This document shows positions 21,866 through 42,878 of a DNA stretch of 64,000 nucleotides, one piece after another. Position 1 is the first letter of the stretch; each line of letters starts with the position of its first letter. The position numbers and the translations under genes were made by a program. The stretch spans positions 3,183 to 67,182 of the forward strand of contig CALCZC010000016.1 of the NCBI GenBank assembly GCA_937903605.1. Direction: 5' to 3'. This stretch comes from an uncultured bacterium. GTDB lineage: Bacteria; Patescibacteriota; Patescibacteriia; Magasanikbacterales; GWA2-37-8. The notes under the pieces were generated by a model that was not told the origin of the DNA, searched no databases, and worked only from the letters and a program-made list of their open reading frames with translations.

Positions 21866-22204
21866 ATGAGTTTAGACCAAACAAAAAAGGCAATCGGAAA
21901 TCACAAAAACAAAAATTTGGCGTTGGGCAAGACAGATGTAAGCGATTTTATTAATATGGGACCAGAAGGCAAAACTCTTGTTTTTAAAATACAAGATGGA
22001 CCTATTAAAGAATATGGATTAAATGGGTGCCAAGTCTCCGATATTATCGAGATCGCCACAGATATAATTCGCCAGCTTAATGAATTATATCCTTGTCGCG
22101 AAAATGCTATAACTATAACAAAATTGGAAGAAGCATTAATGTGGCAAGAAAAAAGAACTCAAGATAGAATAATTCGAAATGTTGAAGGCAAAAATATAGA
22201 ATAA
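21866..22204 (+). CDS. hypothetical protein; position is compatible with a small terminase subunit
   Basis: Position only. Confidence 0.4.
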   Translation: MSLDQTKKAIGNHKNKNLALGKTDVSDFINMGPEGKTLVFKIQDGPIKEYGLNGCQVSDIIEIATDIIRQLNELYPCRENAITITKLEEALMWQEKRTQDRIIRNVEGKNIE

Positions 22205-24074: not shown

Positions 24075-24128
24075 ATAAATAGGATAATGCTGTATTTTTG
24101 TACACTTAATTTTGGATTGGAGGACTAC

Positions 24129-27621: not shown

Positions 27622-27642
27622 ATGAAAGTGAGTGAGAAGTAA
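27622..27642 (+). other. 6-codon upstream mini-ORF MKVSEK whose TAA overlaps the next ATG (TAATG)
   Basis: atg aaa gtg agt gag aag taa tg. Confidence 0.4.
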
Positions 27643-28093: not shown

Positions 28094-28114
28094 ATGAAAG
28101 TGAGTGAAATATAA
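28094..28114 (+). other. second 6-codon mini-ORF MKVSEI, TAATG-coupled to the major capsid gene
   Basis: atg aaa gtg agt gaa ata taa tg; 16-nt identity with the copy at 27622. Confidence 0.4.
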
Positions 28115-29034
28115 TGAGAACCAATTACTTAACCAAAAGCGAAATCGCTAACGTAGAAAAAGTTATGGCGTCCCTTAAAAACGTCGTTAAAGACGCAGAT
28201 ACCGCTTCGTATGACGAACTGGTAAAAGCCGGCACGTTTGTAGTTAATGACTATATCGCAGAGAACCCCTCGCTGCTCGACCTTAGCTCGTTACTGTTTA
28301 ATCCTGGTCAGGTCAATGGCGACGTTCTTGATGTCGAAATCGGACATGGCGGCGTAGCGTACATGCATGCGATTGGTTCGCAGGCTGTACTGTCTCAGGC
28401 TTACATCGAAAGAGTTTCGACGAAAATGAACCGTTTTTCGTTCGCAAGCAAAATCGATGTTAACGCAGTTCGCACTCAGAATGTTGTAAAACTTCTGGAA
28501 GACGCTGCTGAAATCAGATTCAAACTTGGTCTGAAGAAATTCAGATACATATGGGACCTCGTAAAAGCTACGATAACCACTGGCGACCCGATATACATTT
28601 CGGCTGCTACCGTTAACAAAACTAACCTCGACTCGATAATGAACACTATGATGGACACTTCGGGTTCGGTTAAAGCGATAATCGGTCGCGAATCGCTTGT
28701 TACCCAGATAATGGGCTTCAGCGGATGGTCGGAAGTCACCCTGCGCGAAATCGAAACCGGCGTATTCGGTCAGTATCGTGGCGCTCGTCTCGTTGGTATC
28801 AAGAACTATGAAACCACCATCGTTGACGCAGCTGGCACCAAATTCGATACGGCTCAGATCCCTGCTGACCAGCTTATACTGCTCGGCGAAAAATGCGGTT
28901 ACGACGGCGAGAACCCCGTTCAGACGCTTGCTGGCACTGACGTTCTCCTCGGCGCAGAAGTAAAAAATACCTTCTTCGATTACGCTGCTATCATAGTAGA
29001 CGAAAAGAAGATAGGCGTTTACAACATCGCTTAA
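28114..29034 (+). CDS. major capsid protein
   Basis: 306 aa, follows the scaffold, strong terminator downstream. Confidence 0.55.
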   Translation: MRTNYLTKSEIANVEKVMASLKNVVKDADTASYDELVKAGTFVVNDYIAENPSLLDLSSLLFNPGQVNGDVLDVEIGHGGVAYMHAIGSQAVLSQAYIERVSTKMNRFSFASKIDVNAVRTQNVVKLLEDAAEIRFKLGLKKFRYIWDLVKATITTGDPIYISAATVNKTNLDSIMNTMMDTSGSVKAIIGRESLVTQIMGFSGWSEVTLREIETGVFGQYRGARLVGIKNYETTIVDAAGTKFDTAQIPADQLILLGEKCGYDGENPVQTLAGTDVLLGAEVKNTFFDYAAIIVDEKKIGVYNIA

Positions 29035-29114: not shown

Positions 29115-29143
29115 TTGACATTTATTAAATTGTTTGATAGGAT
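29115..29143 (+). promoter_or_regulatory. sigma-A promoter TTGACA-17-TAGGAT (TGn)
   Basis: Direct reading. Confidence 0.45.
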
Positions 29144-29183
29144 TGTATATGATAAAACAATTCACTTAAAGGAGTGTATCAAA

Positions 29184-29660
29184 ATGAGAGCATGGTCAGA
29201 TAGAAACCCCCATATAACTAAAGCACAGAAAAAATGGTATTTGTTTAATCCGGCGGCGGCAGAGCATGATATGATAGGTTTTGATAAGTTAGACGGACAG
29301 GGCAGTATAACTCTTGTGCCTGGCGATCTTATCGAACTAACTGAAATCGAGGTCGCGGCTAATATGCACCGTTCGATTATGAGAGATGGCACAGTAACTG
29401 TTATAGACGAGAAGAAGCTTAAACAGATGATGAATCCGACCTATAATGATGTTGCGGAAAATGTAGACTTCTCTGATGATAGTAATTTAGAAGCGCTTTT
29501 AATGTTAGACGATGTAGATTTTCTTAATAAAGTGGCTAATATTAAAAAGAAAACATTTCTCCGTAGAATCTATCAGATGATACAGGATGATAAATATAAA
29601 AAACTCTATAGTACGATTAAGCGCGTTAAGCAGTATGTGGATGAAGCGAAGGTGAGATAA
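29184..29660 (+). CDS. hypothetical protein (start trimmed to MRAWSD after AAAGGAGTG)
   Basis: ORF with SD. Confidence 0.45.
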   Translation: MRAWSDRNPHITKAQKKWYLFNPAAAEHDMIGFDKLDGQGSITLVPGDLIELTEIEVAANMHRSIMRDGTVTVIDEKKLKQMMNPTYNDVAENVDFSDDSNLEALLMLDDVDFLNKVANIKKKTFLRRIYQMIQDDKYKKLYSTIKRVKQYVDEAKVR

Positions 29661-29661
29661 C

Positions 29662-29844
29662 ATGGCTGGAGAATGGATTAAGGACGATAAATTCGTAAAA
29701 GAGAAATATGATACTACATCTAATACCAATAAACATTTTAAACAGATGTTTCCGACTTATGAATCGTTTTGTGAAAGTGTTCATCCCGCATTAAAGAAAC
29801 AGGAATCAGCGCCAGCAAATAAAGAGGGTGGAGATAAACAGTAG
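29662..29844 (+). CDS. hypothetical small protein
   Basis: ORF. Confidence 0.3.
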   Translation: MAGEWIKDDKFVKEKYDTTSNTNKHFKQMFPTYESFCESVHPALKKQESAPANKEGGDKQ

Positions 29845-29892
29845 ATAAATTAATGGACATAAATGAGTAATGAGTAATAAAGTGAGTATAAA

Positions 29893-31038
29893 ATGTTAAG
29901 AAGTTATAAAACAGAGATAAAGCCGTCAACAGAACAAAGAGAGAAAATAAATCGAACAATTGGAACGTGTCGATTCATTTATAACTTCTTTATAAAACAT
30001 AATAAAGAGCAATATCTTCAAACAAAGAAATTTGTTACCGGATATGATTTCTCAAAATATCTCAATAACGAGTTCATTCCTAACAATCCAGACTTTAAGT
30101 GGATAAAGGAAGTAAGTTCAAAAGCAGTAAAGCAATCGATAATGAATGCAGAACAGTCGTTTAAAAACTTCTTTAAAACGAAAAAAGGATTCCCTAAATT
30201 TAAAAAGAAACATAACTCGATAGTTAAAGTTTATCTTCCTAAAAATAGTGATACTGATTTGTTAGTTGAACGTCATAGAGTTAAAGTTCCAACGTTCGGA
30301 TGGATAAATTTAAAAGAAAAAGGATACATTCCAGTTGATAAGTTAGTTAAAAGTTGTCGTATCGAAAAGAAAGCGAATCGTTACTTCATCTCTGTACTTG
30401 TCGAAACGGGAGTTGAAATCAATTCCTCAAGCAATTCACTGAAGGGCATTGGAATCGATTTAGGGTTGAAAACCTTCGTAACTGTAAGTAATGGAGAAAC
30501 TTTTCCAAATATAAATAAAACAAGAGAAGTTAAAAAATTAGAAAGGAGAATAAAGTCGGATCAAAGGAAATTATCAAGGAAATTGAAAAATAAAAAGAAA
30601 GGAGAGTCTACTAAGAATATAGATAAGCAAAGGTTAAGATTACAGATAGCACATCAGAAACTTACGAACAAGAGACATGATTACTTGAATAAAGTTGTCA
30701 GGTCACTGGCGATAACCAAGCCAGCATTTATAACAATCGAAGATTTGAATGTAAGTGGTATGATGAAAAATAGGCATTTATCTCGCAGTATTGCATCCAT
30801 GAATTTCAGTAGATTTCGTAATCTATTAACCCAAAGGAGTAAAGTTAATTCTTTTGAGTTACGAATAGCAGATAGATTCTTCCCTTCCAGCAAGAAATGT
30901 TGTCAGTGTGGCAATATAAAGAAGGCATTAAGTTTGGCAGAAAGAATTTATGTCTGTGAAATTTGTGGAAACGAAATTGATAGGGATTTAAATGCTGCAA
31001 AGAATCTTGAAAAATTAGAAGTTTATCGAGTCGCGTAG
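29893..31038 (+). CDS. tnpB: TnpB (IS605 OrfB-family RNA-guided nuclease), second copy; about one-third identical to the first; catalytic residues present
   Basis: KTEIKPSTEQREKINRTIGTCRFIYN; IGIDLGLKTF; IEDLNVSGM; CCQCGN ... CEICGN; DRDLNAAKNL. Confidence 0.85.
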   Translation: MLRSYKTEIKPSTEQREKINRTIGTCRFIYNFFIKHNKEQYLQTKKFVTGYDFSKYLNNEFIPNNPDFKWIKEVSSKAVKQSIMNAEQSFKNFFKTKKGFPKFKKKHNSIVKVYLPKNSDTDLLVERHRVKVPTFGWINLKEKGYIPVDKLVKSCRIEKKANRYFISVLVETGVEINSSSNSLKGIGIDLGLKTFVTVSNGETFPNINKTREVKKLERRIKSDQRKLSRKLKNKKKGESTKNIDKQRLRLQIAHQKLTNKRHDYLNKVVRSLAITKPAFITIEDLNVSGMMKNRHLSRSIASMNFSRFRNLLTQRSKVNSFELRIADRFFPSSKKCCQCGNIKKALSLAERIYVCEICGNEIDRDLNAAKNLEKLEVYRVA

Positions 31039-31196
31039 CGATAAGATAAGAATACGGTGGGCTACATCGGAATTTAAGTCTGTGGACTGTTAAAAACCGT
31101 AGTAGATGGAAGCGATTCTTTCGAGGCGGAACAGAATGAAGCAGAAAACAATCTTAATATATTCATTAGTGTCTATATTTTAAGTAGCAGATAATA
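30950..31196 (+). ncRNA. candidate omega-RNA region of the second TnpB
   Basis: Positional inference; 158 nt of noncoding DNA lie between the tnpB stop and the next gene. Confidence 0.3.
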
Positions 31197-32423
31197 GTGG
31201 AGCAACAGACGAAAAGAAAAACTAAAGTATTATATGTAGGCGATTATAACCGCCCTACGGGATTTGGAGAAGTAAGCAAGAACCTATTACATCGTTGGAT
31301 GAATGATGACGAATTTGAATTTACAGTATTAGCATGTAATTATAATGGGCAGTCACCTGTTTATCCGGCACATTTCCCTGTTTATGCTTGCCATAGCGAT
31401 TATGCATTAAATGAGATAGCGCATGTATTTGATATAGTACAGCCAGATATTCTTATTACACTTAATGACGGCTATGTAATGCCGAGTTACGTGCGACAGC
31501 TCGGAGCTCGCCTTAATAACTGTTGGTGGATTGGATATGTTGTCTTTGATGGCACTCCTATTGCAAGATGGAGAGAGGCGCTTAAGCATATTGACTTAGT
31601 AGTATTTCCGACAGAATGGCAAGCGCAGGAAATGGCTAAAGTTATGCCTGATTTTAAGTGCGCCGTAGTAAGTCATGGCGTTAATTTAGATGTTTACAAA
31701 CCCGTGGAAAAGACCGGGATTAAACAATATAAAATGGCAGCACTTGGCGAAAAGAATGCAGACGCTTTTATATTTGGCATGATAGCGAAGAACTTTGAAC
31801 GCAAGAGATATCCAGAATTAATACAGGCTTTCGCTATATTCAAGTATAAGAGTGGCATTGAATTTAAGCGCAATCCAATGCTGATGTTGTATCAGACAAC
31901 GGAGCGTGGAGAATTTAACCTTGAAAACCTTGCTAAAATAGCAGGATGTAAAGATGGAGATGTTGCGATTATAACGGCTCCAGATAATCAAGGATTAACA
32001 GACAATGAAATGAATTTACTCTATAATTCGTTTGATGTTAACTGCCTTATCTCGATTGGCGAAGGATTTGGGTTGCCTACAATTAATGCGGCGGCTTGTG
32101 GCAAGTTAACAATGGCCATGAATAACTCAGTTCAGCCGTCACTTGCTAAATACTTTCCTATGTATTTAGTCCCTTGTGATAATCAATCTCCTGTGTGGTT
32201 CGGAAAAGATATGGAACAGATTCGTTTTATTCCAGATTGCAAGAAACTTGCACAGGCAATGTGCGAAGTATATGTTAAGATGAACGAACCTGGCTTCGCT
32301 GAACAGATTGCTAAAGAGGCAATGACAAGTGCTAAAGAATTTACTTGGGATATTATGGCAGATGATTTCATGTCATTGGTGAAGCCTTATGTTGGACAAT
32401 CCAAGAAGGCCCAGGTGATTTAA
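31197..32423 (+). CDS. GT4-family (GT-B) glycosyltransferase
   Basis: GEGFGLPTINAAACGK motif; GTG start. Confidence 0.55.
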   Translation: MEQQTKRKTKVLYVGDYNRPTGFGEVSKNLLHRWMNDDEFEFTVLACNYNGQSPVYPAHFPVYACHSDYALNEIAHVFDIVQPDILITLNDGYVMPSYVRQLGARLNNCWWIGYVVFDGTPIARWREALKHIDLVVFPTEWQAQEMAKVMPDFKCAVVSHGVNLDVYKPVEKTGIKQYKMAALGEKNADAFIFGMIAKNFERKRYPELIQAFAIFKYKSGIEFKRNPMLMLYQTTERGEFNLENLAKIAGCKDGDVAIITAPDNQGLTDNEMNLLYNSFDVNCLISIGEGFGLPTINAAACGKLTMAMNNSVQPSLAKYFPMYLVPCDNQSPVWFGKDMEQIRFIPDCKKLAQAMCEVYVKMNEPGFAEQIAKEAMTSAKEFTWDIMADDFMSLVKPYVGQSKKAQVI

Positions 32424-33529
32424 TGAATATACTTTGGATTTATGGACTCACTGAAAGCTCTGGATATGCAAGAAACTCAAGAGAGTTTATCAAGGCGCTC
32501 AATGCAAATGGCGTTACTACTAAGTTCTTAAGCCTTGGGCATAGCAAATACCCAGAGAAAGCAATAATGGGTAAATGGGAAGCGGAAACTGGTTATTCAT
32601 ATGATTTAGTAGTACAGAATTGTGTTCCTCCTGCGTTTAAAAAGTTCGGTAATAAAAAGAATATCTTAATGACCGTGGCAGAAACTGATAGCGTTTCTCA
32701 AGAATGGGTTAAATGCTGCAATACTGCGGATGAAGTATGGACTATGAGTTATTATAGTCAGGCAGCGTTTATTCATTCGGGAGTTACTGTTCCTGTAAGA
32801 GTCGTATTGATGCCGATTGATATTCAGGCGATACAAAGCGCCGGTCGTATTAAAAGCCCAGAGATAGCAGAGCAGCTTAATAAATTTAGAGCAAAATGTA
32901 GCTTTATTTTCATGGCAAATTCAGAATGGACTCCGCGCAAGGGATGGGACATCTTATTGCATTCTTTTTGTAAAGTATTCGCTCCATACGAAGACATCGG
33001 ATTAATGATTAAAACATGTTGTTTCTCTGGCGTTGAAACATCGCAATCTATGGCAAGATTAGTTAAACAGATTAAAGAGCAGTATGACGCGAAATGTCCT
33101 GTATTCATAATAAATGATGTTATGGATATTGAAGACGTATGGACGCTATATAAGTTCGCTGATGCGTTTGTATTGCCATCTCGTGGCGAGGGATGTGGTA
33201 TTCCATTTTTAGAAGCAATGTCCATGGGGTTGCCAACGGTAATGCCCTCTCACGGGGGTCAAGTGGACTATGCTAATGATATGCTTTGCACAAGGGTTAA
33301 GTCATATTTAAGGCCGGCCCATAGATTCCCTCATAATCCTAACTATGACGAAACAATGTTATGGATCGAGACGGACCAAAATGAGCTTTCAGATAAACTA
33401 ATGAGCGTTATAATGAATCATAATAAAGAAAGAAATGAGCTTGGCAGAGGTCAGTTCATAGAGACGTTTTCTTATGATGGAACTGCAATAAAAGATTTTA
33501 TCAAAATAGCGGAAGTGGTGATTAAATGA
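32423..33529 (+). CDS. GT4-family glycosyltransferase
   Basis: SRGEGCGIPFLEAMSMGLPTV (EX7E motif). Confidence 0.6.
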   Translation: MNILWIYGLTESSGYARNSREFIKALNANGVTTKFLSLGHSKYPEKAIMGKWEAETGYSYDLVVQNCVPPAFKKFGNKKNILMTVAETDSVSQEWVKCCNTADEVWTMSYYSQAAFIHSGVTVPVRVVLMPIDIQAIQSAGRIKSPEIAEQLNKFRAKCSFIFMANSEWTPRKGWDILLHSFCKVFAPYEDIGLMIKTCCFSGVETSQSMARLVKQIKEQYDAKCPVFIINDVMDIEDVWTLYKFADAFVLPSRGEGCGIPFLEAMSMGLPTVMPSHGGQVDYANDMLCTRVKSYLRPAHRFPHNPNYDETMLWIETDQNELSDKLMSVIMNHNKERNELGRGQFIETFSYDGTAIKDFIKIAEVVIK

Positions 33530-34674
33530 AATATATAATTTATGGAAATATTTATTCAGCAACATCGTTTTCAAATGTAATTCTTCATATGGCATACTAT
33601 TTAAGAAAATCTGGCAATGAGGTAGTTTTAAAATCAACCGAATTACTAAATGAACCTGAAGAGACGCTAATTGCTAAATATATGTCTCATATGCCCGATT
33701 CAAATGATTTATTAAAGAACTGCCTGTACAAAGACCAAAATGATTTTGATGTTGCTATATATTTCTTGGTCGATCCATTAGTCCATGCTCCAAATAAATC
33801 TATACGGGCCAAGAAACATATTTTCTATACTGTTTGGTCACATAATAACTATCCGATTAAATGGGCAGAAGCATTAAATCAGTATGATGAAGTATGGACT
33901 CCATCTCATGCTAATTCTGATGCCATTGTTAAAACTGGCAAGTGCAATAAACCTATTATTGTAATGCCACATGGATACGAACCATTGGTGTTTAATAATT
34001 TAGATAGGCATAAAAATAAGACATTTAAAATAGGCATGTGTAACTCTATATGCAACTTCAAGGGCGCTGATGTAGCCCTTGAGGCGTTTATGGAGTCATT
34101 CGATTATGGGGATGATGTTGAATTATGGCTTCAATCTACTGTGTCAGTAAGAAATAATCATGGTGATAAACATGGGCAATATTATAAAGAATACATTGAT
34201 ATACTGAATAAATATCCTGATAAGCAATTAAAAACATTCTATTATCAGAAAGACTGCAATATATCTGAAATGGCAGATTTTTATAGGTCATGTGATTTGA
34301 TATTATCTCCTCATCGTGGCGATGGATTTGGGCTTGTAGGGCTTGAAGCAATGGCATGTGGGGTTCCCGTTGTAATATCAAATTATCATGGGCCAAAAGA
34401 TTATATATCAGAGGCATATCCATATTGGTTGTGTGGCTCAATGGATTGGGTTAATCATTTTAGCAATAAACCGCATTGGCCTGATGGTGGCGATAAAGAA
34501 GAGATATACATGTTTTTCAATCCCGATAAAGAACATTTAAAAAAGATTCTATTGTCAGCTTATAGTGATTGGCAACATGATATAACATTGGAATGCAAAC
34601 AGTATTTTAAAGGACAATCATGGCAGAGCATAGTAGACTTTGTAGAGAGGTTGTGTAATGGAAAAAGTATTTAA
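33526..34674 (+). CDS. GT4-family glycosyltransferase
   Basis: HRGDGFGLVGLEAMACGVPVVISN. Confidence 0.6.
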   Translation: MKYIIYGNIYSATSFSNVILHMAYYLRKSGNEVVLKSTELLNEPEETLIAKYMSHMPDSNDLLKNCLYKDQNDFDVAIYFLVDPLVHAPNKSIRAKKHIFYTVWSHNNYPIKWAEALNQYDEVWTPSHANSDAIVKTGKCNKPIIVMPHGYEPLVFNNLDRHKNKTFKIGMCNSICNFKGADVALEAFMESFDYGDDVELWLQSTVSVRNNHGDKHGQYYKEYIDILNKYPDKQLKTFYYQKDCNISEMADFYRSCDLILSPHRGDGFGLVGLEAMACGVPVVISNYHGPKDYISEAYPYWLCGSMDWVNHFSNKPHWPDGGDKEEIYMFFNPDKEHLKKILLSAYSDWQHDITLECKQYFKGQSWQSIVDFVERLCNGKSI

Positions 34675-35290
34675 TGATATATTTTTGTATAAAGGATGGC
34701 AGGGGGAGGGGACAATTTCTGGCCCTGGCTCTACAATCGAAGCAACCAAAAATATTCGAAGATTCTTATCTAACCTTGGACAGATAAATATTATTGATTG
34801 TCCTTGTGGGGATTTTAATTGGATGAAGTTAGTGGCTGAAAAATTTAATAACTATTATGGCATAGATATTGTAAAGGATATTATCAATAATAACAATAAG
34901 AGATATTCAAAAGATAATATTTACTTTATACATGGAAGCCTTGATAATTATGATTTTTCGACCATTAATGCTGAATATATGCTAATACGAGACTGCCTAG
35001 TACATATGTCGCTTCAAGACATTATATCTGTCTTTAAAAATATTATAAAAAGTAATGCTAAAAAAATAATGATAACGCATTTTAATGATAATAGATTATT
35101 TAAAGACATTAATACTGGCGAATGGCGTCCTATAAATTTTTGTATGCCTCCATTTAATTTTCCGTCTCCACATTATTTACTTAACGAAGAGTGCAAGGAG
35201 TGCAATGGCATATTCGCAGACAAATCCATTGGAGTATGGGATATGCAAGTAATTAAAGATTTTATTGCAAAATATGATAAAATAAAGTAA
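34658..35290 (+). CDS. class I SAM-dependent methyltransferase-like protein
   Basis: IIDCPCGDFNWM (motif I-like) and YGIDIV (motif II-like). Confidence 0.45.
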   Translation: MEKVFNDIFLYKGWQGEGTISGPGSTIEATKNIRRFLSNLGQINIIDCPCGDFNWMKLVAEKFNNYYGIDIVKDIINNNNKRYSKDNIYFIHGSLDNYDFSTINAEYMLIRDCLVHMSLQDIISVFKNIIKSNAKKIMITHFNDNRLFKDINTGEWRPINFCMPPFNFPSPHYLLNEECKECNGIFADKSIGVWDMQVIKDFIAKYDKIK

Positions 35291-35313
35291 AATACATATG
35301 GAAGGTGATTTAA

Positions 35314-35883
35314 GTGAAAATATCAGTAATTACTTTTAAGGATAATATTTTAGACATTCTTGACGCTAGACGTCAATTTAAATATGACCATATCGAAGTT
35401 TATGCTCCCGCAGAAAAAGAACGCGCGTTTCGCAAACAGGCCAAAGGATCAGACGTAAGAATTAAGTTCTTGCATGAGCTGATGTATGGCAATGATATTC
35501 TGGTCTTTATTGGCTGCACAACTGATTTTATACAGAACAATATTACCAAAGGCAAAGAAGTATTAATGACCAACGATAAGGTTATTGCAGTTGGTGCGAA
35601 AGAAGTGCTTGGACCTTATATGATTGGTGGCGTATCTTATTTTAAATTTAAGCCTCTTCAGATTCTTACTAAGCCGATAGAGGTAAAGTCTGAGATAAAA
35701 ATTGAGCCAGTTAAGATAGAGATTCCTATTGAAGTTTCTATTGAAAAAATAGTTGAAGTTGGGCCTATTAAGGCTATTGTCGAAGAGCCTAAAAAAGAGG
35801 AAATTGTTATTAAGGCTGAAGCTCCTATTGAACCTCCCGTTGCAGAAGTTAAAAAGATTCTGCCCAAAAGGGGCAGAAGATAA
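35314..35883 (+). CDS. hypothetical protein with a P/E/K/I-rich repetitive tail ending KRGRR
   Basis: ORF; low-complexity (PIEV/KIE)n. Confidence 0.4.
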   Translation: MKISVITFKDNILDILDARRQFKYDHIEVYAPAEKERAFRKQAKGSDVRIKFLHELMYGNDILVFIGCTTDFIQNNITKGKEVLMTNDKVIAVGAKEVLGPYMIGGVSYFKFKPLQILTKPIEVKSEIKIEPVKIEIPIEVSIEKIVEVGPIKAIVEEPKKEEIVIKAEAPIEPPVAEVKKILPKRGRR

Positions 35884-36413
35884 TGAACAAGTTTGATAAG
35901 TATTGTGGTATGCATGCGTGGATTCCTGCGCCAAACTTATCAAATGGATTTCATGGGATTCTCTTTCAATATATTAAAGAATATTATCAAGATAGAAATT
36001 CGTTGCTTATGATTGCAGAGAATGATAATGTAAATAATATATTTGAAAGAGAGTTTCGCAATATTTCGATTAACAATAACTCATATTCGGGAAGTAAGGG
36101 CGAGCAGTTTATCGACTTGAATATAAAATTAAATTGGGAGTCTAAATTTGATTTTGTATTAAGTCAGGCTTTATTAGAACATGTCTGCCGCCCATGTATT
36201 GCTTTAGAGAATATGGTTGATGCGACGAAGATAGGCGGCAAAATAATAATACATACTCAAAATGCCCAGATGGGATATCATGCCGTACCGATTGACTGTT
36301 TAAGGTTTTTTAAAGATTGGTTTGTTGATATGCAAAAATATCTTCCAATTAAGTTAATTGCATGGAACGAATTTGGGCCACATTTGTTTTGCATGTATGA
36401 AAGGATTAATTAA
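35883..36413 (+). CDS. methyltransferase-like (FkbM/class I-like) protein
   Basis: FDFVLSQALLEHV ... GGKIIIHT; weak. Confidence 0.3.
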   Translation: MNKFDKYCGMHAWIPAPNLSNGFHGILFQYIKEYYQDRNSLLMIAENDNVNNIFEREFRNISINNNSYSGSKGEQFIDLNIKLNWESKFDFVLSQALLEHVCRPCIALENMVDATKIGGKIIIHTQNAQMGYHAVPIDCLRFFKDWFVDMQKYLPIKLIAWNEFGPHLFCMYERIN

Positions 36414-37144
36414 TGAACATTGCGGTTATAATGTGTTATTGTGGTAGGAATGAGAGATGGCTCTATCAATCAATATGCTCGTTAAAATCAGAGAAACATA
36501 ATGTTGATGTTTATTTGCATTTAGACGGATGTCAGAGGCCAGTTTCTTTTGTGTTTGCCGATAATATTAAAGTTGTTCAATCGCCATCTCGCTTAGGTTA
36601 CGCGAATGGCATTAATAAATGTGTTCTTGCAATCGCCCAGTCTGGCAAACATTATGATTATATTGCTCGAATGGATGATGATGATGTTAGCGCTGATGAT
36701 AGATTGGATAAACAAGTTGAGTTTTTAGAGCAGAACAAAAATATTGATTTTTGCGGTTGCTTGCTTACTGTTATTGATGATGCAGGAAAAGTAACGGATA
36801 ATACATGGATGGCCCAAGCAAATAATGGAATTGATTGGTCAACTCGTTTTTTAAATGGTGGTTGTTATATTGCCAATGGCACTGTAATGTTCAGATCAAA
36901 AATATTATATGAGGGACACCTTTGGTATAATCCATTGTATCTTGTAATTGAAGATTATGAACTATGGTTTAGATTATTTCGACAGGGTTATAGATACGAT
37001 GTAGTTCCAGAAAGATTGTATTTGTATAGAGTTCACGCTGGACAAGAAACACAAAGGCATTCAGAGCATAATAAGAAAATGGCAATGGCAGATGAGATAC
37101 ATCAGTTTTATGTAAAGAATTGGAGCAAGTTTTTAGTAAAATGA
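36413..37144 (+). CDS. GT2-family (GT-A) glycosyltransferase
   Basis: DxD cluster ARMDDDDVSADD and the EDYELWFRL motif. Confidence 0.55.
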   Translation: MNIAVIMCYCGRNERWLYQSICSLKSEKHNVDVYLHLDGCQRPVSFVFADNIKVVQSPSRLGYANGINKCVLAIAQSGKHYDYIARMDDDDVSADDRLDKQVEFLEQNKNIDFCGCLLTVIDDAGKVTDNTWMAQANNGIDWSTRFLNGGCYIANGTVMFRSKILYEGHLWYNPLYLVIEDYELWFRLFRQGYRYDVVPERLYLYRVHAGQETQRHSEHNKKMAMADEIHQFYVKNWSKFLVK

Positions 37145-38274
37145 GCAAAGAGCAAGAAGAAATAGATATTATAAATAAATTCGTCCAGCGTCATAAGGTC
37201 GAAGGGAATACTCCATTTAGTTATGGGAAGATATTTCATCACTTAGATGTTTTACATGAAATAAAACATCGTCCAGAAGACGTATGTCCCGTAACTCTGG
37301 AATTACATTTGACAAATAAGTGTTCGCATAATTGCTTATTCTGTATGTATAAAAAAGAGATAAGAGAAAGCAATATTTGTTCGGCAGAGATTCCGTTTGA
37401 TATAGCTGAATCTATAATAGACGATGCTGCAAGAATGGGAGTTAAGGCAATTACTTATAGCGGTGGAGGGGAGCCGACATTACACCCTCAGTTTAAAGCT
37501 ATATCTACGATTGGCAGTGACTATTCAATAGACCAGGGGTTAATTACTAATGGAAGTATGCTGCATCACAAAGATATATGTGAACATATTGTAAATAATT
37601 TTAAATGGGTTCGCATATCTGTTGATGCCGGTTCGGATTCAGTATATAAAATATTGCATGGCAACTGTTGTGATTTTAGCAAAACAATAGACGGAATTAA
37701 GCAATTATGCGTTATAAATAACAATAGAATCAAAATAGGCATTTCCTTTTTATTGACATCATTTAATTCTTGTGATATGATTAAATTGTATGATATTTTG
37801 TCTTCCATTGGCGTTGATTACCTACAGATAAAGCCCATGATTATGTCTAAAAATCAAAAAAGCATACATAACAATTATATTACACAGGCAATCGTAGATG
37901 ATATTGAGACGCTAATACAGAAGGCAGAGAAAGACAATAAGATAAAAGTATATGTATTATTCGACCAGTTTAAAAATATTATAGGCAACGAACATACTTT
38001 TGATAAATGCCATGGACATGCGTTATATCCAGTTATATCGGCGATACAGGAAATCTTTGTCTGCTGCATGCATTTACATAATGACTCAATGAAATATGGA
38101 AAAATAACTAAAAATAATTCGTTTTATGATATATGGCGTAGTAAAAAAAGATTCCAGATTGGCGACAACATTGATTTAAGCAAATGCCCAAAATTATGCC
38201 GATTGGCGAAGACAAATAACATTTTAGACATGATAGATAAAACTACTAATTTAGATATTAATTTTTTAAATTAA
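37120..38274 (+). CDS. radical SAM enzyme with C-terminal Cys-rich (SPASM/twitch-like) extension
   Basis: CSHNCLFC (CX3CX2C), SGGGEPTLHP glycine motif; C-terminal CHGH ... CC ... C ... C. Confidence 0.65.
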   Translation: MEQVFSKMSKEQEEIDIINKFVQRHKVEGNTPFSYGKIFHHLDVLHEIKHRPEDVCPVTLELHLTNKCSHNCLFCMYKKEIRESNICSAEIPFDIAESIIDDAARMGVKAITYSGGGEPTLHPQFKAISTIGSDYSIDQGLITNGSMLHHKDICEHIVNNFKWVRISVDAGSDSVYKILHGNCCDFSKTIDGIKQLCVINNNRIKIGISFLLTSFNSCDMIKLYDILSSIGVDYLQIKPMIMSKNQKSIHNNYITQAIVDDIETLIQKAEKDNKIKVYVLFDQFKNIIGNEHTFDKCHGHALYPVISAIQEIFVCCMHLHNDSMKYGKITKNNSFYDIWRSKKRFQIGDNIDLSKCPKLCRLAKTNNILDMIDKTTNLDINFLN

Positions 38275-38283
38275 GGGGGTTAC

Positions 38284-38721
38284 ATGCATTCAGTTACTCA
38301 GACAATAATAGATAAAATAAAGCGTCAGGTTACAGTTGGCACTGATACGGATGCTACTATCGCGCTTAAAATAGGCGATACTTTTGATGATATTTATAAC
38401 GATACTGGCGTTTCTTTATCATTTGTCGATGAAACTGATTATGAGATAACTCCAAGTATAGCCGGCACCGCTAACGGATCGTATCGTTTGGCGATATTCT
38501 ATAAAGTAAAGGCATATTACTTAATTAAGGCCAAGGATGCCGCTACAGCGAAAGCAGTTAGGGTTAAGTCTGGTCGCGATGAGGTTGATACAACTAAGGC
38601 AGTTGGCGGATATGAGAACTCGATTAAAGATAATGCGACTGACTATAAGAAATGTGTTAATAAGATTAATTCGGTGTTAGGCGGAAGACTTGCTGATGTC
38701 AGCGAACAGGATGAGGTATAA
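38284..38721 (+). CDS. head-tail connector or neck protein (hypothetical)
   Basis: Position; GGGTTACATG SD. Confidence 0.4.
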   Translation: MHSVTQTIIDKIKRQVTVGTDTDATIALKIGDTFDDIYNDTGVSLSFVDETDYEITPSIAGTANGSYRLAIFYKVKAYYLIKAKDAATAKAVRVKSGRDEVDTTKAVGGYENSIKDNATDYKKCVNKINSVLGGRLADVSEQDEV

Positions 38722-39257
38722 TGGCTATAGTAGAACCTGAGTTACTAACAGATGATATTATAGAAACATATCAAAGCAATATCACGGCGATCAAGCATCA
38801 ACTTGGAACGCTTGCGGATATTGTATGGAACGAAGAAGAGGTTAAATGTCCTAACTGCTTCTATGATTCTGTTAATAAATCGTCTACTGGCAGATATAGG
38901 CCATCTGGACCTATAGTGTTTACGACAGGCACTTGTCCGTATTGTTCTGGAAAGGGAATGCTGACGAATACTGGCAAACTTAGCATAAAGGGAAATGTAT
39001 TCTATCCTGGCTTATTTACACACGATAGAGAGCCTGAGCCTGGATATGTATTTGATAATCAGAACGCTAATATATCATTTTTAAAAAGCGAATGCTATAT
39101 AAGCGAAGGACAATATAGTGGTAAGCTGGTTTTTGATGTAATGAGATATATGGAGTTTGATTCCCAGAAATGGGTATTGGATGGCATGCCAATGTGGACA
39201 GGCTTAGGCGAAAGATTCGTAATAGAGGCTAAAATAAAAAGAACGAATAAGGTGTAA
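38721..39257 (+). CDS. neck/head completion protein with zinc ribbon (CPNC ... CPYC)
   Basis: Position. Confidence 0.4.
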   Translation: MAIVEPELLTDDIIETYQSNITAIKHQLGTLADIVWNEEEVKCPNCFYDSVNKSSTGRYRPSGPIVFTTGTCPYCSGKGMLTNTGKLSIKGNVFYPGLFTHDREPEPGYVFDNQNANISFLKSECYISEGQYSGKLVFDVMRYMEFDSQKWVLDGMPMWTGLGERFVIEAKIKRTNKV

Positions 39258-39258
39258 T

Positions 39259-40209
39259 ATGGCGGAAGATTTTATTAAATTTGAATCTTTTTTACGAAAA
39301 TTTCAAATGGGAAAGTTCGTTGAATTAGACCTAACTGGACTCAAGAAAGCATTTAATAAGATAAGGGGAGAGCGTGGAAGATTTATCGGCAAGTCTGCCG
39401 CTTTCGCTAAGTTATTAGAGGCTGTCAATGTTGGCAGCGAGTTCGGGATTAAAGATGTTGCATATAAGATTTATGAAGAGTATAAAAAAACTCTTAAAAG
39501 GTCAAGTAATCCAATTGTTGCATCTGTTTTAGAATCGTTGGGCGCGATATGTGAAGAGATGCAGATGAACCCTAAAAAATATTTTAATATAAAGATAGTT
39601 AAAGAAGACCAAATAGAAGTAAGAGCCAGACCGTTTAATATGACATTATTTAATAAGAGCACGATAAAAGATAGACAATCATATTATCGGCCACGCGGTA
39701 TTGTTAGAACTAAATATAAAGACTATGATATAAAGCCGCTATTCATAACAAACCCGATGTATGGCAGAAACTCGTCGCATGTGGGCATGGGCGTTTTGTT
39801 TGAATTTGGCAGGGCCAGCGCTGGCACGATTCGGCCAGGACAAGAAGCGAAGGAAACAATTTATAGAACCAAACCTAAATCAAAAGGCAAAAAACCAGAG
39901 TATCGTAAGAGAAAAATAAAAGGCTCAGAGTCGTTTGCATATTACACTGTACTGCCACAGCAATCAGTTTTAAAAGAAACCAAAAAGGGTTTAGCTTTTG
40001 GTGGACAAAAACGCGCTCTTTTGATTCCTGTTAGTTCAAGGGAATATGTTTTTAGGTCGCAATCTCGCTGGGGAAAAACAAAGGGTATGAATAAGATATA
40101 TGAACAGCAAAACGTCATTCGGGATAAATATGTTAAGGCTTTTATTGAAGCGATAGAAGTATCTTTAAAAAACTTTGGATTTAATAAATTTTCAGTAACA
40201 AGGGCGTAA
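39259..40209 (+). CDS. neck/tail completion protein (hypothetical)
   Basis: Position. Confidence 0.4.
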   Translation: MAEDFIKFESFLRKFQMGKFVELDLTGLKKAFNKIRGERGRFIGKSAAFAKLLEAVNVGSEFGIKDVAYKIYEEYKKTLKRSSNPIVASVLESLGAICEEMQMNPKKYFNIKIVKEDQIEVRARPFNMTLFNKSTIKDRQSYYRPRGIVRTKYKDYDIKPLFITNPMYGRNSSHVGMGVLFEFGRASAGTIRPGQEAKETIYRTKPKSKGKKPEYRKRKIKGSESFAYYTVLPQQSVLKETKKGLAFGGQKRALLIPVSSREYVFRSQSRWGKTKGMNKIYEQQNVIRDKYVKAFIEAIEVSLKNFGFNKFSVTRA

Positions 40210-40211
40210 AT

Positions 40212-40754
40212 ATGGAATTAAGAAGAATGGCAATAATTAATTTATGTTTTGAGGCAAAGCGTATTATTGAATCAGTAATAGGCAGAGATGATTTTACATA
40301 TTTACTTGAAATGCCAGATGATGATAAACAAATAGTATTTCCTGTTGATTATCAAGAAGGACTTAACTATAAGATGCCAGTTTGCGTTGTAGACGCAGAT
40401 TTCTTTGAGATGGAACCAGTTGAAATAGGCGGTTCTTTTTGGGATATAGCGCATGTAACAATAGACATAATATGCGTAACAAAGGCAGAAAGTATGGATA
40501 TTGCTGAAACTATTCTTAAGAATTTAGTAAGCAATCATAATTTTTATGATTTTAATGCAGACGCAGATATACCAGACATCAACGAACCCTTTGACCCAGG
40601 GCTGTTGCCGTCTACGGTATTAACTCAATGGGATGTGACGAGCGAGGAAGATTTTTCTCAATCGACACTGAAACTAACTAATTCTACAGAGCCGAATTAT
40701 GCAAAGCGATATCAAAGTACGCTTGCAGGAACTATTCGGTACATCAGAAACTAA
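40212..40754 (+). CDS. tail completion / head-tail joining protein (hypothetical)
   Basis: Position. Confidence 0.4.
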   Translation: MELRRMAIINLCFEAKRIIESVIGRDDFTYLLEMPDDDKQIVFPVDYQEGLNYKMPVCVVDADFFEMEPVEIGGSFWDIAHVTIDIICVTKAESMDIAETILKNLVSNHNFYDFNADADIPDINEPFDPGLLPSTVLTQWDVTSEEDFSQSTLKLTNSTEPNYAKRYQSTLAGTIRYIRN

Positions 40755-40774
40755 TTTAACAGGACGGTGTTAAA

Positions 40775-42109
40775 ATGAGTGTAACAACCCAAATTCAAGG
40801 CAAGGGTCAAGCGATATTCATGAACAATGATATCCTTAAAAGAGTGCAGAATGTGGACCTTGGTGCAGACTTGGCAGTTGAAAACATAGAAGAACTCGCA
40901 AATGCGGGCTATGTTGAAAAACTTGCCGATCTTCCTAAAGTTTCCGTTTCAATAGAAACTAATGATGTTGGCTCGATGGCAAACTTAGTGCTTCTGAAAA
41001 GCGGCACCCAGCTTCCTTCGACCCCGACTGCTTATGGCGTTAACAGAGGTACGACTGGTATATATGTAGGAACTTATTCGGGCAACGATGTTGTCACGAT
41101 GTTAGACCCTACTTATGACCTCGACCATCAAAAATGCCCTTCGTTTGTATTTAAAATAAGCGAATTTAATAACACTACGCTCGACAGAAGCTGCCACTTA
41201 CAGGGAACTTATCTCGATGCAGTAGAATTTGCATATGAGGTTGGCGGTCTCGCAAAAGAAAACTATCGTTTCTCTGGCGACCATAAAGTATGGTATTTCG
41301 GCACGAAGAAAGATATAGCGCTTGATTTCGCAACTTATTCGGATGCTTCAAATGCAACGACTACGGTTAATATGACTACTTTAGGTCTTACGCTTGAAGC
41401 AGTATTCCTTAATAAAGAAGAAATATATAATGATGCCAAATCATTAGATACTTATTCGATAACTTGGGCTGGCACTACGCTTACGGCTGGCACTGGAACT
41501 CCGTTCCTCTCTGGCGACCGTATCGAAGTGGTTTACAGCTACAATACTGCTCGCGAATTCCCGAAACTGAATACGACTAATACTGGTACTCGCGGTGGTC
41601 TTCGCAGGGGTTGTATCAAAGTGTACGCATGGAAAAATGGCGATACTGGCGATAAAGAAAAATTACTCCGTTGCCAGAGCGTAAGCGGTTCGTTAGATTT
41701 CGGCAGACAGGAAATATACGAACTTGGCACTCAGCGCTACATCGATAAACCAACTACTTATCCGCTGAATGTTAGATTCGACCTTACCTTCAACCAGGCC
41801 GATCTTAAAACGATGGCAATAGCACAGGGTAAGTTCGCATCTGGCGCCTCTCCCAATTGGGAAGATGGAACTCTGACTACTATGGATGTTAAAGACTTCA
41901 TAGATAATTGCGACGTTCAGGTTGAAATCTACAAAGACGCTCATACTGCAACCGCGTCTACCCTCGCTAAAACGATAACTTTTGCTAACTGCAAAATAGT
42001 TACCGAAGGCGACTCGGCGCGTGTTGGCAATACGGCTGGCCAGTGGAGAGCAACCCTTCAGACTGATAACATCGTATGGTCTGGAAGCGGCAATAATCTC
42101 GATAGCTAA
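40775..42109 (+). CDS. major tail protein (siphovirus-type)
   Basis: 444 aa, immediately before the G/GT chaperones and the tape measure; strong terminator after it. Confidence 0.45.
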   Translation: MSVTTQIQGKGQAIFMNNDILKRVQNVDLGADLAVENIEELANAGYVEKLADLPKVSVSIETNDVGSMANLVLLKSGTQLPSTPTAYGVNRGTTGIYVGTYSGNDVVTMLDPTYDLDHQKCPSFVFKISEFNNTTLDRSCHLQGTYLDAVEFAYEVGGLAKENYRFSGDHKVWYFGTKKDIALDFATYSDASNATTTVNMTTLGLTLEAVFLNKEEIYNDAKSLDTYSITWAGTTLTAGTGTPFLSGDRIEVVYSYNTAREFPKLNTTNTGTRGGLRRGCIKVYAWKNGDTGDKEKLLRCQSVSGSLDFGRQEIYELGTQRYIDKPTTYPLNVRFDLTFNQADLKTMAIAQGKFASGASPNWEDGTLTTMDVKDFIDNCDVQVEIYKDAHTATASTLAKTITFANCKIVTEGDSARVGNTAGQWRATLQTDNIVWSGSGNNLDS

Positions 42110-42113
42110 TTGC

Positions 42114-42142
42114 TTGACATTCGTAATTTAATACGATAAAAT
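42114..42142 (+). promoter_or_regulatory. sigma-A promoter TTGACA-17-TAAAAT
   Basis: Direct reading. Confidence 0.45.
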
Positions 42143-42188
42143 GGTAGTGATGGTAGAGTAATTTCTGCTGTCACTATCATTTTTTTTA
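42141..42188 (+). terminator. rho-independent terminator (13-bp stem with G-U pairs followed by T8), overlapping the promoter -10 and start site
   Basis: AUGGUAGUGAUGG ... CUGUCACUAUCAU then UUUUUUUU. Confidence 0.5.
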
Positions 42189-42200
42189 GGAGGATTCCAA

Positions 42201-42878
42201 ATGGAAGAAATTAAGGTAGCACAACAAGAAGCGAAAGACATGGAGCAGATGGCAGAATCGAAGGCAGTATTAACTAATGGCGCTAAAGAGTTTACTTTTG
42301 ATGGCACTAAAGTGTATGTAAGGTTTCCTCGTTTAAAGGAAAAGAATCAGCTTGATAAAGAATATTCGTTAAAATATCTTAAGATGGTTCGCGATAAACA
42401 GTTCCCTACGATGAGAGCATGGAAAAAAGAACTGGAAGTCAATGGCATGTGGACTCCCGAGGATGAAAACGAATTTATCGAAAGCCAGAAGATGTATATG
42501 GAATCATATAAAGAATGGTATTCGTTTCCATACGATCAGAGATTAGATAATCCTGCATTTGATGATGCAGATAAAAATTATACTCAGGCGACGATTAACT
42601 ACATGAAATTATTCACTGAAAGAGAGAGCATGTTCGCTCATACGATTGAGAAGATATTAGAAAATGAACAGATCGTAAAACAAGTTATAATGTGTGTATT
42701 TAAAGATGAAGGATTTAAAGAACCTTTATTCAAAGACGAAAATGACCTTGAAAATTATCCCAATGGCGAGGCAGTAGTATCTCTTGTAAGAGATTGCACT
42801 ACCTTCTGGATGGGAGTTGGTGAGCGTTTTTTAGAGCAATTGCCCGCGAACATATCTGGCAACGCAAGTACGAATTAA
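42201..42878 (+). CDS. tail assembly chaperone (gpG-like)
   Basis: Acidic 225-aa protein upstream of the tape measure; slippery site near its 3' end. Confidence 0.55.
   Translation: MEEIKVAQQEAKDMEQMAESKAVLTNGAKEFTFDGTKVYVRFPRLKEKNQLDKEYSLKYLKMVRDKQFPTMRAWKKELEVNGMWTPEDENEFIESQKMYMESYKEWYSFPYDQRLDNPAFDDADKNYTQATINYMKLFTERESMFAHTIEKILENEQIVKQVIMCVFKDEGFKEPLFKDENDLENYPNGEAVVSLVRDCTTFWMGVGERFLEQLPANISGNASTN
42827..42833 (+). promoter_or_regulatory. -1 programmed ribosomal frameshift heptamer T TTT TTA in the chaperone frame
   Basis: The -1 frame is open from 42824 through 43099; canonical X XXY YYZ site. Confidence 0.55.

Follow-up and report, generated by a model that had tools for sequence, protein, structure and literature searches.

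Glycosylation of virions is already known, as are cassettes of glycosyltransferase (GT) and methyltransferase genes within phage structural modules. The capsids of the F1 phages Che8 and Rita are described as glycosylated in a paper that refers to an earlier study (PMC11256854, citing Freeman 2023), and in Corndog (Cluster O) an O-methyltransferase, two GTs and a GlcNAc-transferase lie between portal and protease and modification of the capsid is suspected (PMC4351075). The chlorovirus PBCV-1 encodes its own soluble GTs without signal or membrane segments, a GT4 member among them, has a methyltransferase activity for a terminal sugar and its own GDP-mannose 4,6-dehydratase, and chlorovirus glycan variants define antigenic classes (PMC5408694). 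In cyanophage S-CBS4 the cassette has the order portal, GT, GT (GalT), methyltransferase. Here we describe a set of such genes, in the following called the island, at positions 31197-38274 of a 64-kb stretch of contig CALCZC010000016.1 (the window, to which all coordinates refer) that probably derives from an uncultured phage with a genome of about 117 kb (~116.9 kb, of which ~53 kb lie outside the window). The island combines four GTs with methyltransferase-type proteins and a radical S-adenosylmethionine (SAM) enzyme, and we propose with moderate confidence that its products would glycosylate virion proteins late in infection and in the cytoplasm, in the manner of actinophages and chloroviruses. 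What is new is how large and modular the island is, that it occupies a fixed head-neck locus in a hitherto undescribed uncultured clade, that it includes two clade-specific partner proteins, and that a radical-SAM enzyme from an uncharacterised family, itself frequent in viral contigs, is regularly present; no account of such a radical-SAM association turned up in a literature search.

The interval contains eight open reading frames (ORFs), all on the plus strand and overlapping or tightly packed. Pfam matches were judged against the curated gathering cut-offs, and PHROGs and NCBIfam were searched as well. The first three genes encode GT4 enzymes, GT4a (31197-32423; PF00534 Glycos_transf_1, 28.7 bits against a cut-off of 26.4), GT4b (32423-33529; 49.2 bits against the same cut-off and 49.9 bits for PF13692) and GT4c (33526-34674; 50.5 bits against the same cut-off and 44 bits for PF20706), and all three match phrog_2170 'glycosyltransferase' with E-values from 6e-30 (GT4a) to 4e-34. 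As read from the translations, the EX7E motif is canonical in GT4b (GEGCGIPFLEAM), has the second E replaced by N in GT4a (GEGFGLPTINAA) and the first E replaced by D in GT4c (GDGFGLVGLEAM). Homologues of GT4a are found in cyanophage S-CBS4, Tetrasphaera phage TJE1 and others, the closest cultured-phage homologues of GT4c are the glycosyltransferase pairs of Streptomyces and Rhodococcus phages, and GT4b is 47-62% identical among those relatives of the window phage that carry it. There follows a class-I SAM methyltransferase of 210 aa (34658-35290; Methyltransf_25, 29.6 bits against 27), which matches phrog_3382 'methyltransferase' at 4e-30 and has an intact motif I ('IIDCPCGDFNW'), and then a clade-specific 189-aa protein (35314-35883) that is unmatched in Pfam, PHROG and NCBIfam. 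The product of 35883-36413 is methyltransferase-like and may be non-catalytic: its best Pfam match stays below the cut-off (20.7 bits against 27) and spans the C-terminal half of the fold only, and the glycine-rich motif I is replaced by 'LLMIAENDN'. A GT2 enzyme of 243 aa (36413-37144; PF00535 Glycos_transf_2, 42.5 bits against 23.3) has a DxD motif ('RMDDDDVS') and is devoid of the C-terminal membrane helices of the GtrB type. The last gene encodes the radical-SAM enzyme (PF04055, 56.1 bits against 29.5); its mechanical ORF begins at TTG 37120, and the true start is probably ATG 37141 (37141-38274), which fits a 377-aa database protein. Taken together the catalytic motifs of the island enzymes (EX7E, DxD, motif I, CX3CX2C and GGGEP) are largely intact, with the variants in GT4a and GT4c. 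A first-pass annotation of this DNA had counted seven genes, to which the 189-aa ORF is now added; its assignment of three GT4s, one GT2, one methyltransferase and a radical-SAM enzyme is borne out by Pfam and, for the GT4s and the methyltransferase, by PHROGs too, and the second methyltransferase that it named is the degenerate, sub-threshold one.

The island is built into the structural gene block. Within it neighbouring genes overlap by 1-17 nt or are separated by at most 23 nt, the stop codon of the radical-SAM gene is followed after 9 nt by the next structural gene, and no internal terminator-like sites above shuffled expectation were detected in the island. The whole lies in one plus-strand block that extends over more than 44 kb, from ~18.2 kb, before the large terminase (TerL), to 62.6 kb at the tail fibres. 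The GC content of the island (0.352) is not distinctive as compared to that of the window (0.366), and compositional foreignness was dropped as a feature; only short imperfect matches were seen in a search for flanking repeats that would mark a discrete mobile island.

None of the eight island products reaches an NCBIfam equivalog cut-off, and the best named matches (EpsE, TuaG/TuaC, BshA, MshA, lipoteichoic acid (LTA)-anchor GTs, a W-cofactor maturase and viperin) are all far under theirs. Membrane-like segments are missing in all eight, the top 19-residue hydropathy of 1.69 corresponding to the GT4 catalytic motif, and neither a priming phosphoglycosyltransferase nor a flippase, transporter or polymerase was found in the island by Pfam or NCBIfam. 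A lipid-carrier-dependent locus for surface polysaccharides of the Wzx/Wzy or ABC type was considered and rejected, given that there is no export machinery and no membrane protein. Placement of the GTs in capsular or teichoic-acid pathways with membrane-export signals had been named beforehand as counter-evidence to a role on the virion; the island GTs have no membrane segment, and named cell-envelope families match only far below their cut-offs.

How constant is this arrangement? Relatives were gathered via the protein database and its contigs, a metagenome scan, contigs with radical-SAM homologues and contigs with distant capsid homologues, and their layouts were derived from ORF-by-ORF BLASTP against the window. 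They come from groundwater and activated sludge. A scan of IMG/VR with the single capsid protein found nothing; two IMG/VR relatives surfaced via the radical-SAM scan. The neighbourhood comparison, which the first-pass annotation had suggested, reveals a site-specific island: about eight independent metagenomic lineages, with capsid identities of 37-85%, carry it at the same site, and because of this recurrence the arrangement is not put down to chance. In the most distant of them (L027, capsid 37%) the same island start is seen up to the contig end. Homologues of the 145- and 178-aa genes that lie downstream in the window directly follow the island in all island-bearing relatives. By contrast, L028 (capsid 44%) has no island gene and lacks the small ORF that is linked to the island elsewhere; its order is portal, 274 aa, 161 aa, 141 aa, capsid, 155 aa, an unmatched 126-aa ORF and homologues of the window genes at 38284, 38721 and 39259. 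The 126-aa ORF (4258-4638 of L028) occupies the island site and was unmatched against window proteins in BLASTP and against Pfam.

Every locus laid out in this way has the small ORF, then GT4a, GT4b and GT4c, and also a protein of the 189-aa type. The remainder varies. The window, whose capsid is the reference, has methyltransferase, methyltransferase-like gene and 243-aa GT2, ends 3' in the radical-SAM gene and is devoid of a dehydratase gene; the same holds for L016 (capsid 59%) and for L015 (59%), in which the methyltransferase-like gene is split. L025 (83%) has this set plus a dehydratase, and L021 (59%) has dehydratase, methyltransferase-like gene, 243-aa GT2 and 3' radical-SAM gene and lacks the methyltransferase. 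L002, L005 and L014 (83-84%) carry the dehydratase and neither the methyltransferase nor the methyltransferase-like gene; they encode another GT2 (31-48% identical to that of the window, as in all cases of another GT2) and end in a 279-aa protein without known family, a methyltransferase and an FkbM-type methyltransferase. Dehydratase and methyltransferase-like gene are both absent from L018 and L010 (57% each), which also have another GT2; L018 has the methyltransferase and a 3' end made of a 278-aa protein of the unassigned kind and a methyltransferase, and in L010 the methyltransferase is split and the 3' end is a methyltransferase. The dehydratase, at first taken for an epimerase, is a GDP-mannose 4,6-dehydratase (PF16363, 452 bits) and lies between GT4b and GT4c in L025 and the L002 group and after the 189-aa-type protein in L021. 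In L015, L016, L021 and L025 the methyltransferase-like gene, the 243-aa-type GT2 and the radical-SAM gene are found together. Judging from these layouts, the small ORF, the three GT4s, the 189-aa-type protein and a GT2 form a conserved core, and what can be exchanged is the methyltransferase, the dehydratase and a 3' cassette composed either of methyltransferase-like gene, 243-aa GT2 and radical-SAM gene or of the other GT2, the 279-aa protein and methyltransferases.

Identity levels follow a different course in island and backbone. Towards L025, which has a close backbone, the flanks are 75-83% identical, GT4a to GT4c 56-62%, the methyltransferase 45%, the 189-aa protein 31% and the radical-SAM enzyme 55%. 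Over the relatives with close backbones, the island lies at 50-62% and the flanks at 75-89%. Towards L015, with a distant backbone (identities of 58% for TerL, 48% for portal and 59% for capsid), the island is the better conserved part, with 89% for the GT2, 70% for the radical-SAM enzyme and 68% for GT4c. The histories of island and backbone therefore differ, and such a mosaic exchange fits a surface trait under diversification. Since its GC content is near that of the window and flanking repeats are missing, the island is not a recent import; it is, on these comparisons, an ancient accessory block at one fixed junction.

The radical-SAM enzyme is the least conventional member of the island. 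Cysteines C61, C65 and C68 (CX3CX2C) and the GGG(E)P motif are invariant in 29 homologues, and so are four C-terminal cysteines only, C290, C308, C349 and C353. The first-pass annotation had called it a SPASM enzyme; PF13186 SPASM scores 18.3 bits on the ORF, under the cut-off of 21.5, and this score and the four cysteines rule out a full SPASM domain with its seven cysteines and two auxiliary clusters, so that the C-terminal part is better described as a predicted twitch-like domain with one auxiliary cluster. Identity as a viperin was also discarded (NCBIfam NF038283, 60.9 bits against a cut-off of 180). In an AlphaFold2 model (pLDDT 91) the closest solved fold is that of DesII (E=2e-15, TM score 0.64), with the peptide maturases SuiB and SkfB close behind and BlsE, viperin and MoaA also found; in profile searches the top solved sequences are SkfB, MoaA and CteB, and the twitch domain of BtrN is matched as well. 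DesII acts on a TDP-sugar. The substrate is not settled by the fold alone.

More can be learned from the genomic context. IMG/VR contains at least 486 viral relatives of the enzyme, and in a census of 149 immediate neighbours, taken from 76 of the best 80 IMG/VR loci, the commonest families are GT2 (22), exostosin GT47 (10) and RXYLT1 (9) besides class-I methyltransferases; DegT proteins and sugar epimerases or dehydratases also occur. A homologue in Lachnospiraceae (31% identity) adjoins a DegT/DnrJ/EryC1 aminotransferase in a cluster with GT2, GT8 and methyltransferase, and one homologue is fused to a cytidylyltransferase domain. Homologues are further found in cyanophage SynMITS9220M01 beside heptose-synthesis genes, a methyltransferase and a GT, and in pelagiphage HTVC008M beside a GT, a methyltransferase, a carbamoyltransferase and a UDP-glucose dehydrogenase. 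In the podovirus metagenome-assembled genome MW202801 (GenBank MW202801.1, L031, 19640-24303) a homologue with 27.5% identity over 90% of the query lies one gene past the capsid gene and opens a six-gene cassette of the order radical-SAM, GT, PhyH dioxygenase, DREV methyltransferase, NodB-like deacetylase, GT, which looks like an independent instance of the same theme. Because of these sugar-enzyme neighbours the island radical-SAM protein is read as a sugar-directed enzyme of predicted, unspecified reaction that falls outside all curated families. Being found nearly always beside glycosyltransferases, the family is a candidate for new nucleotide-sugar chemistry whatever the acceptor may be.

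Two small proteins accompany the enzymes. A 60-aa ORF (29662-29844, plus strand), with a conserved N-terminal half and a variable, acidic and Ser-rich tail, is linked to the island: it lies just upstream of or overlaps the first GT4 at every junction examined (L002/L005, L010, L012, L014, L015, L016, L018, L021, L025 and L027). The 189-aa protein consists of an N-terminal domain of ~120 aa with a KGSD motif, a variable linker rich in P, E, V, I and K and a basic C-terminal tail, which in this family always has five basic residues around an invariant Gly (K/R-R/K-G-R/K-R/K). A profile search of 5.8 billion proteins retrieved 10 clusters of this family, none of them named and all confined to the phage clade. 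A docking or tethering role for the 189-aa protein is a guess.

How could these proteins act together? In the scheme that we favour, the four soluble GTs, three of type GT4 and one of type GT2, would draw on nucleotide sugars and attach one sugar after another to one or more virion proteins during the assembly of heads and tails. O-methylation of a sugar would fall to the class-I methyltransferase, and the radical-SAM enzyme would remodel a sugar by radical chemistry, its likely substrate being a nucleotide sugar and the likely reaction an oxidation, deoxygenation or epimerisation as in DesII or BtrN. The small upstream ORF and the 189-aa protein may be clade-specific helpers. Relatives that swap the 3' cassette or add the GDP-mannose 4,6-dehydratase would produce differing 'glycotypes', like O-antigen loci. 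Gene families, largely intact catalytic motifs, operon structure, conserved position, cassette variation and the glycan-cluster context of the radical-SAM family are observed; that the island is expressed late, that its acceptor is a virion protein, in which order the steps proceed and which chemistry the radical-SAM enzyme performs, we infer. What favours glycosylation of the virion over the other explanations is the operon coupling, the fixed head-neck site over deep divergence, the missing export machinery, the diversification of cassettes and the described precedents. Of the function first suggested for the island, a glycan on the virion remains the best-supported one, with neither acceptor protein nor site identified; the proposal that this glycan acts as an immune shield fared less well, as it was borrowed from phages in a context of mammalian antibodies. 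For phages in groundwater or sludge, it would be likelier that a glycan shields particles from proteases or grazers, stabilises them or helps them to adhere to host polysaccharide. Only tentatively may the scheme be extended: the phage radical-SAM family would make unusual sugars of deoxy, keto or epimerised type, the GT2 and methyltransferase-like proteins would place them at the tip of the virion glycan, tip cassettes (of the radical-SAM type or of the methyltransferase/FkbM type, with or without the GDP-mannose dehydratase) would be exchanged at the fixed head-neck locus as 'glycotypes' comparable to O-antigen serotypes, and the enzymes would be brought to particles under assembly by the 189-aa protein with its basic tail, a combination that we consider doubtful as a whole.

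Several observations speak against glycosylation of the virion. The glycan is deduced from gene content and not from particles. No acceptor signal could be detected: the capsid protein has no Ser/Thr-rich C-terminal extension, the candidate proteins have no Ser/Thr-rich tails, and the capsids of island-bearing phages show no distinctive loop or feature as compared to that of the island-less relative. The AlphaFold model of the capsid protein, made from a 9-sequence alignment only, reaches no more than pLDDT 37. For the genes in 38284-42878 no relatives were detected in cultured phages or Pfam, and position is the ground on which they are assigned to neck and tail. Since DNA bases and, in the cytoplasm, cell-wall polymers are substrates of soluble GT2 and GT4 enzymes as well, membership in these families does not fix the acceptor, and 4 of the 149 neighbours of viral radical-SAM homologues are TET-associated glycosyltransferases, which act on DNA. 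Finally, the window copy of GT4a may be under-expressed: it starts with GTG and has no recognisable Shine-Dalgarno sequence, whereas L014 has AGGAGG before an ATG, and the usual ribosome-binding site is missing because a TnpB element has inserted upstream and abuts GT4a at 31148-31200.

The acceptor could instead lie in the host envelope. According to this explanation, which was first put forward as a moron that remodels the host wall and which we keep as the leading rival, itself improbable, a wall polymer or surface glycan would be altered from the cytoplasmic side, blocking superinfection or the sticking of progeny to debris. The best named matches of the island GTs are indeed cell-envelope enzymes (EpsE, TuaG/TuaC, BshA and LTA-anchor GTs), at scores weak and far below cut-off, and the cellular radical-SAM homologues lie in bacterial polysaccharide-type clusters. 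The lack of membrane segments in the island, together with that of a flippase, polymerase or priming transferase, argues against such a role, although peripheral wall-polymer GTs such as TarM, TarS and TarP need no membrane segment. PHROGs places the GTs in the category 'moron, auxiliary metabolic gene'; morons, however, are usually sporadic and separately transcribed, whereas the island is translationally coupled to the late structural operon of an apparently lytic phage (the ORFs that were scanned include no integrase), keeps its capsid-adjacent site across deep divergence and follows a pattern that recurs in unrelated phages.

Somewhat less probable still is hypermodification of DNA, in which the GTs would glycosylate hydroxymethylated or otherwise activated bases of the phage as protection from restriction and methyltransferases and radical-SAM enzyme would tailor the sugar. 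Phage GT-A and GT-B enzymes related to those of lipopolysaccharide and teichoic-acid synthesis glycosylate 5-hydroxymethylcytosine, and the respective gene clusters may be located in the vicinity of structural, terminase and epimerase genes (bioRxiv 10.1101/2023.12.21.572611). However, nearly all ORFs of at least 100 aa in the 64-kb window were inspected and no ThyS-like hydroxymethylase, TET/5mYOX enzyme or DNA methyltransferase is among them, and the island methyltransferases belong to small-molecule class-I families and not to those of DNA methyltransferases. The TET-associated enzymes among the radical-SAM neighbours mentioned above are in line with a DNA acceptor, as is the score of 44 bits that the GT4c region attains on 'GT4 in conflict systems'; four GTs and the GDP-mannose dehydratase of the relatives, on the other hand, imply a glycan longer than the mono- to trisaccharides described for DNA.

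Quite improbable is the possibility that the radical-SAM enzyme acts on a protein, introducing a thioether, epimerisation or cross-link into a virion protein or the product of the small ORF in the manner of ribosomally synthesised and post-translationally modified peptides (RiPPs), whereupon the GTs would glycosylate it. SkfB, CteB and SuiB, which are among the best profile and fold matches, are peptide-modifying SPASM/twitch enzymes, yet the island enzyme has one auxiliary cluster only, no RiPP recognition element or leader-type partner was found, and the neighbourhoods of its family are overwhelmingly composed of sugar enzymes. In front of the island there is always the small conserved ORF with its variable tail, but this ORF is kept in relatives without the radical-SAM gene, for example L002 and L014, and that gene co-varies with the GT2 and the methyltransferase-like gene instead. 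A soluble glycoconjugate or a reshaping of the host's nucleotide-sugar pool, with neither virion nor DNA as acceptor, has equally little probability. The radical-SAM homologues in T4-like cyano- and pelagiphages do lie away from head genes in variable regions by heptose or UDP-glucuronate synthesis genes, whereas four transferases without a pathway product, the strict head-neck linkage and the cassette diversification argue for a displayed polymer.

The genes on both sides of the island, all on the plus strand, form what is by homology of TerL, portal, capsid and tape measure a phage morphogenesis module. The large terminase (22243-24021) is 24-25% identical to annotated Bacillus phage terminases (about 1e-10), and the portal (24087-25973) weakly matches the portal of Clostridium phage Amboise. 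The major capsid protein (28114-29034) was more difficult to recognise, the single sequence giving nothing usable against Pfam, PHROG or PDB, and only a deeper family profile revealed its identity. From 1.84 billion representatives a full HMMER search retrieved a capsid family of 44 proteins of about 300 aa; the profile built from 42 of them matches PDB 6wkk (chain 6wkk_A, 'Gp27 major capsid protein') over the full length with E=5.6e-12, and 13 of the 42 match phrog_2522 'major head protein'. The protein is 25% identical to the product of the capsid-position gene of phage Amboise, and its gene has the highest GC content at third codon positions of the region (0.52). An identical 12-mer, GAAAGTGAGTGA, stands at 27624-27635 and 28096-28107, just before the start codons of a 146-aa gene and of the capsid gene; these are its only two exact copies in the window, and it may be a translation-initiation or regulatory signal shared by highly expressed head genes. 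A conserved gene (29115-29660, 181 aa in the window) has homologues of about 150-180 aa after the capsid gene in all relatives, L028 included. Just before the large terminase a 112-aa protein (21866-22204, plus strand) contains the Pfam Acb2/Tad1 hairpin domain (E=3.6e-7) and is a candidate sponge for cyclic-nucleotide immune signals in the sense of anti-CBASS or anti-Thoeris.

Downstream of the island, two conserved genes of 145 and 178 aa (38284-39257) are presumed by position to serve head-tail joining. A 444-aa protein (40775-42109) is read as the presumed major tail protein because of its position upstream of the tape measure, the raised GC content of its gene (0.44) and the strong terminator-like hairpin at 42139-42182 that follows it (20-bp stem and T-run). 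The tape measure protein (43125-50777) is supported by Pfam PhageMin_Tail (3.8e-26) and is followed by two giant tail proteins, one of 1531 aa (51619-56214) that is unmatched in Pfam and one of 2136 aa (56223-62633) with fn3 and Ig-like repeats and a C-terminal intramolecular chaperone of the Peptidase_S74 (endosialidase) type, an architecture known from tail fibres or spikes. When neck and tail ORFs were scanned against Pfam with permissive settings, nothing but noise came up, and tblastn with the portal-position ORF and the 444-aa and 178-aa proteins found no cultured relatives. The placement of the island between the capsid gene and neck and tail genes, as first described, consequently holds by profile on the capsid side and by position on the neck side.

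The first-pass annotation had also seen a TnpB element as the left boundary of the island. The TnpB (IS605 OrfB) gene (29893-31038, plus strand; Pfam HTH_OrfB_IS605, OrfB_IS605 and Cas12f1-like_TNB all matched) is followed 41 nt past its stop codon by the start of a RAGATH-18 RNA, the 3' RNA of the TnpB element (31079-31147, plus strand; Rfam RF03064, 50.3 bits against a gathering cut-off of 44.9), and no TnpA is among the listed ORFs near it. It sits inside the conserved unit, between the small ORF and GT4a, and an alignment with the insert-free L014 confines the extra DNA to ~29806-31222. In the L002 group an HNH/RRXRR endonuclease separates the 156-aa gene from the small ORF, at the corresponding place, which differs from that of the window insert, L010 has a TnpB, and no selfish insert is found here in L003, L009, L012, L014, L015, L016 and L025. 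The inserts being variable and independent among the relatives, TnpB as mobiliser of the island is ruled out; the spot is, as far as these alignments tell, a landing pad for selfish elements and not a device for island mobility.

A second TnpB gene (15923-17125, minus strand, 400 aa, with all three Pfam domains) adjoins a tRNA-Pro(UGG) (15591-15664, minus strand), and no RAGATH-type RNA was detected beside it. The closest cellular relatives of the island-side TnpB (L112-L191, species genomes, 49-59% identity) are almost all Bacillota, namely Lachnospiraceae, Clostridium, Erysipelotrichales and Negativicutes. Bacillota are thereby weakly indicated as host phylum, which fits the distant matches of terminase and capsid to Bacillus and Clostridium phages. 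Megablast against phage records returned only a 45-nt TnpB match, and no prophage relative turned up when species genomes were scanned with the capsid alignment.

Elsewhere in the window, 2940-3740 (minus strand) is devoid of ORFs of 75 aa or more and has a GC content of 0.42-0.47 as compared to the window mean of 0.366; its RNA folds far more stably than shuffled controls (z=-5.7) into several GC-rich hairpins, there is no significant match in Rfam, and the region is a possible source of one or several structured non-coding RNAs. The leftward, presumably early gene block includes a gene for a 172-aa member of the YpsA SLOG family (12242-12760, minus strand, E=3.5e-21).

If the island does glycosylate virions, the enzymatic form of this modification would reach beyond actinophages into an unrelated, uncultured and probably Bacillota-infecting lineage, the trait would evolve by cassette exchange at a fixed structural locus, and radical-SAM sugar chemistry would join the phage glycosylation toolkit. 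Among the described systems, Corndog and Che8 share with the island phage-encoded soluble GTs linked to structural genes, in Corndog with a methyltransferase in the operon, and the closest cultured-phage homologues of GT4c are GT pairs of actinophages. Unlike Corndog, the window phage belongs to an unrelated lineage with an unrelated probable host phylum (low GC, Bacillota-like signals), and its island sits after the capsid gene at the head-neck junction and is twice the size, with four GTs, the radical-SAM enzyme, the clade-specific protein and the small ORF; a C-terminal acceptor tail is not visible on its capsid protein. The first-pass annotation had described the cassette as larger than its precedents and as adding methylation and radical chemistry, which holds for the four GTs and the radical-SAM enzyme, methylation being already present in Corndog and S-CBS4. 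GT and methyltransferase cassettes within the head module also link the island to S-CBS4 and MW202801, whose backbones are unrelated and whose accessory enzymes differ (dioxygenase, deacetylase); these cassettes show that the theme recurs and do not thereby indicate its function. DNA sugar-hypermodification clusters likewise combine GT-A and GT-B enzymes, epimerases and methyltransferases, sometimes near structural genes, but their defining base-activating enzymes were not found in the 64-kb window. With DesII, BlsE and BtrN the radical-SAM enzyme has the CX3CX2C core and one auxiliary four-cysteine site in common; identity is only 12-17%, however, and the RiPP maturases SkfB, SuiB and CteB score about equally. 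DesII is paired with DesI, a DegT-type aminotransferase beside the radical-SAM enzyme, as is the case for bacterial homologues here, whereas the phage island has no aminotransferase. Chloroviruses resemble the clade in that relatives of the window phage encode a GDP-mannose 4,6-dehydratase, there inside the island; they differ as eukaryotic giant viruses with scattered and early-expressed genes, another capsid fold and no radical-SAM enzyme. As an analogy, and not as homology of the systems, the chlorovirus pathway would nevertheless come closest in function to a putative capsid glycan bearing methylated deoxyhexoses.

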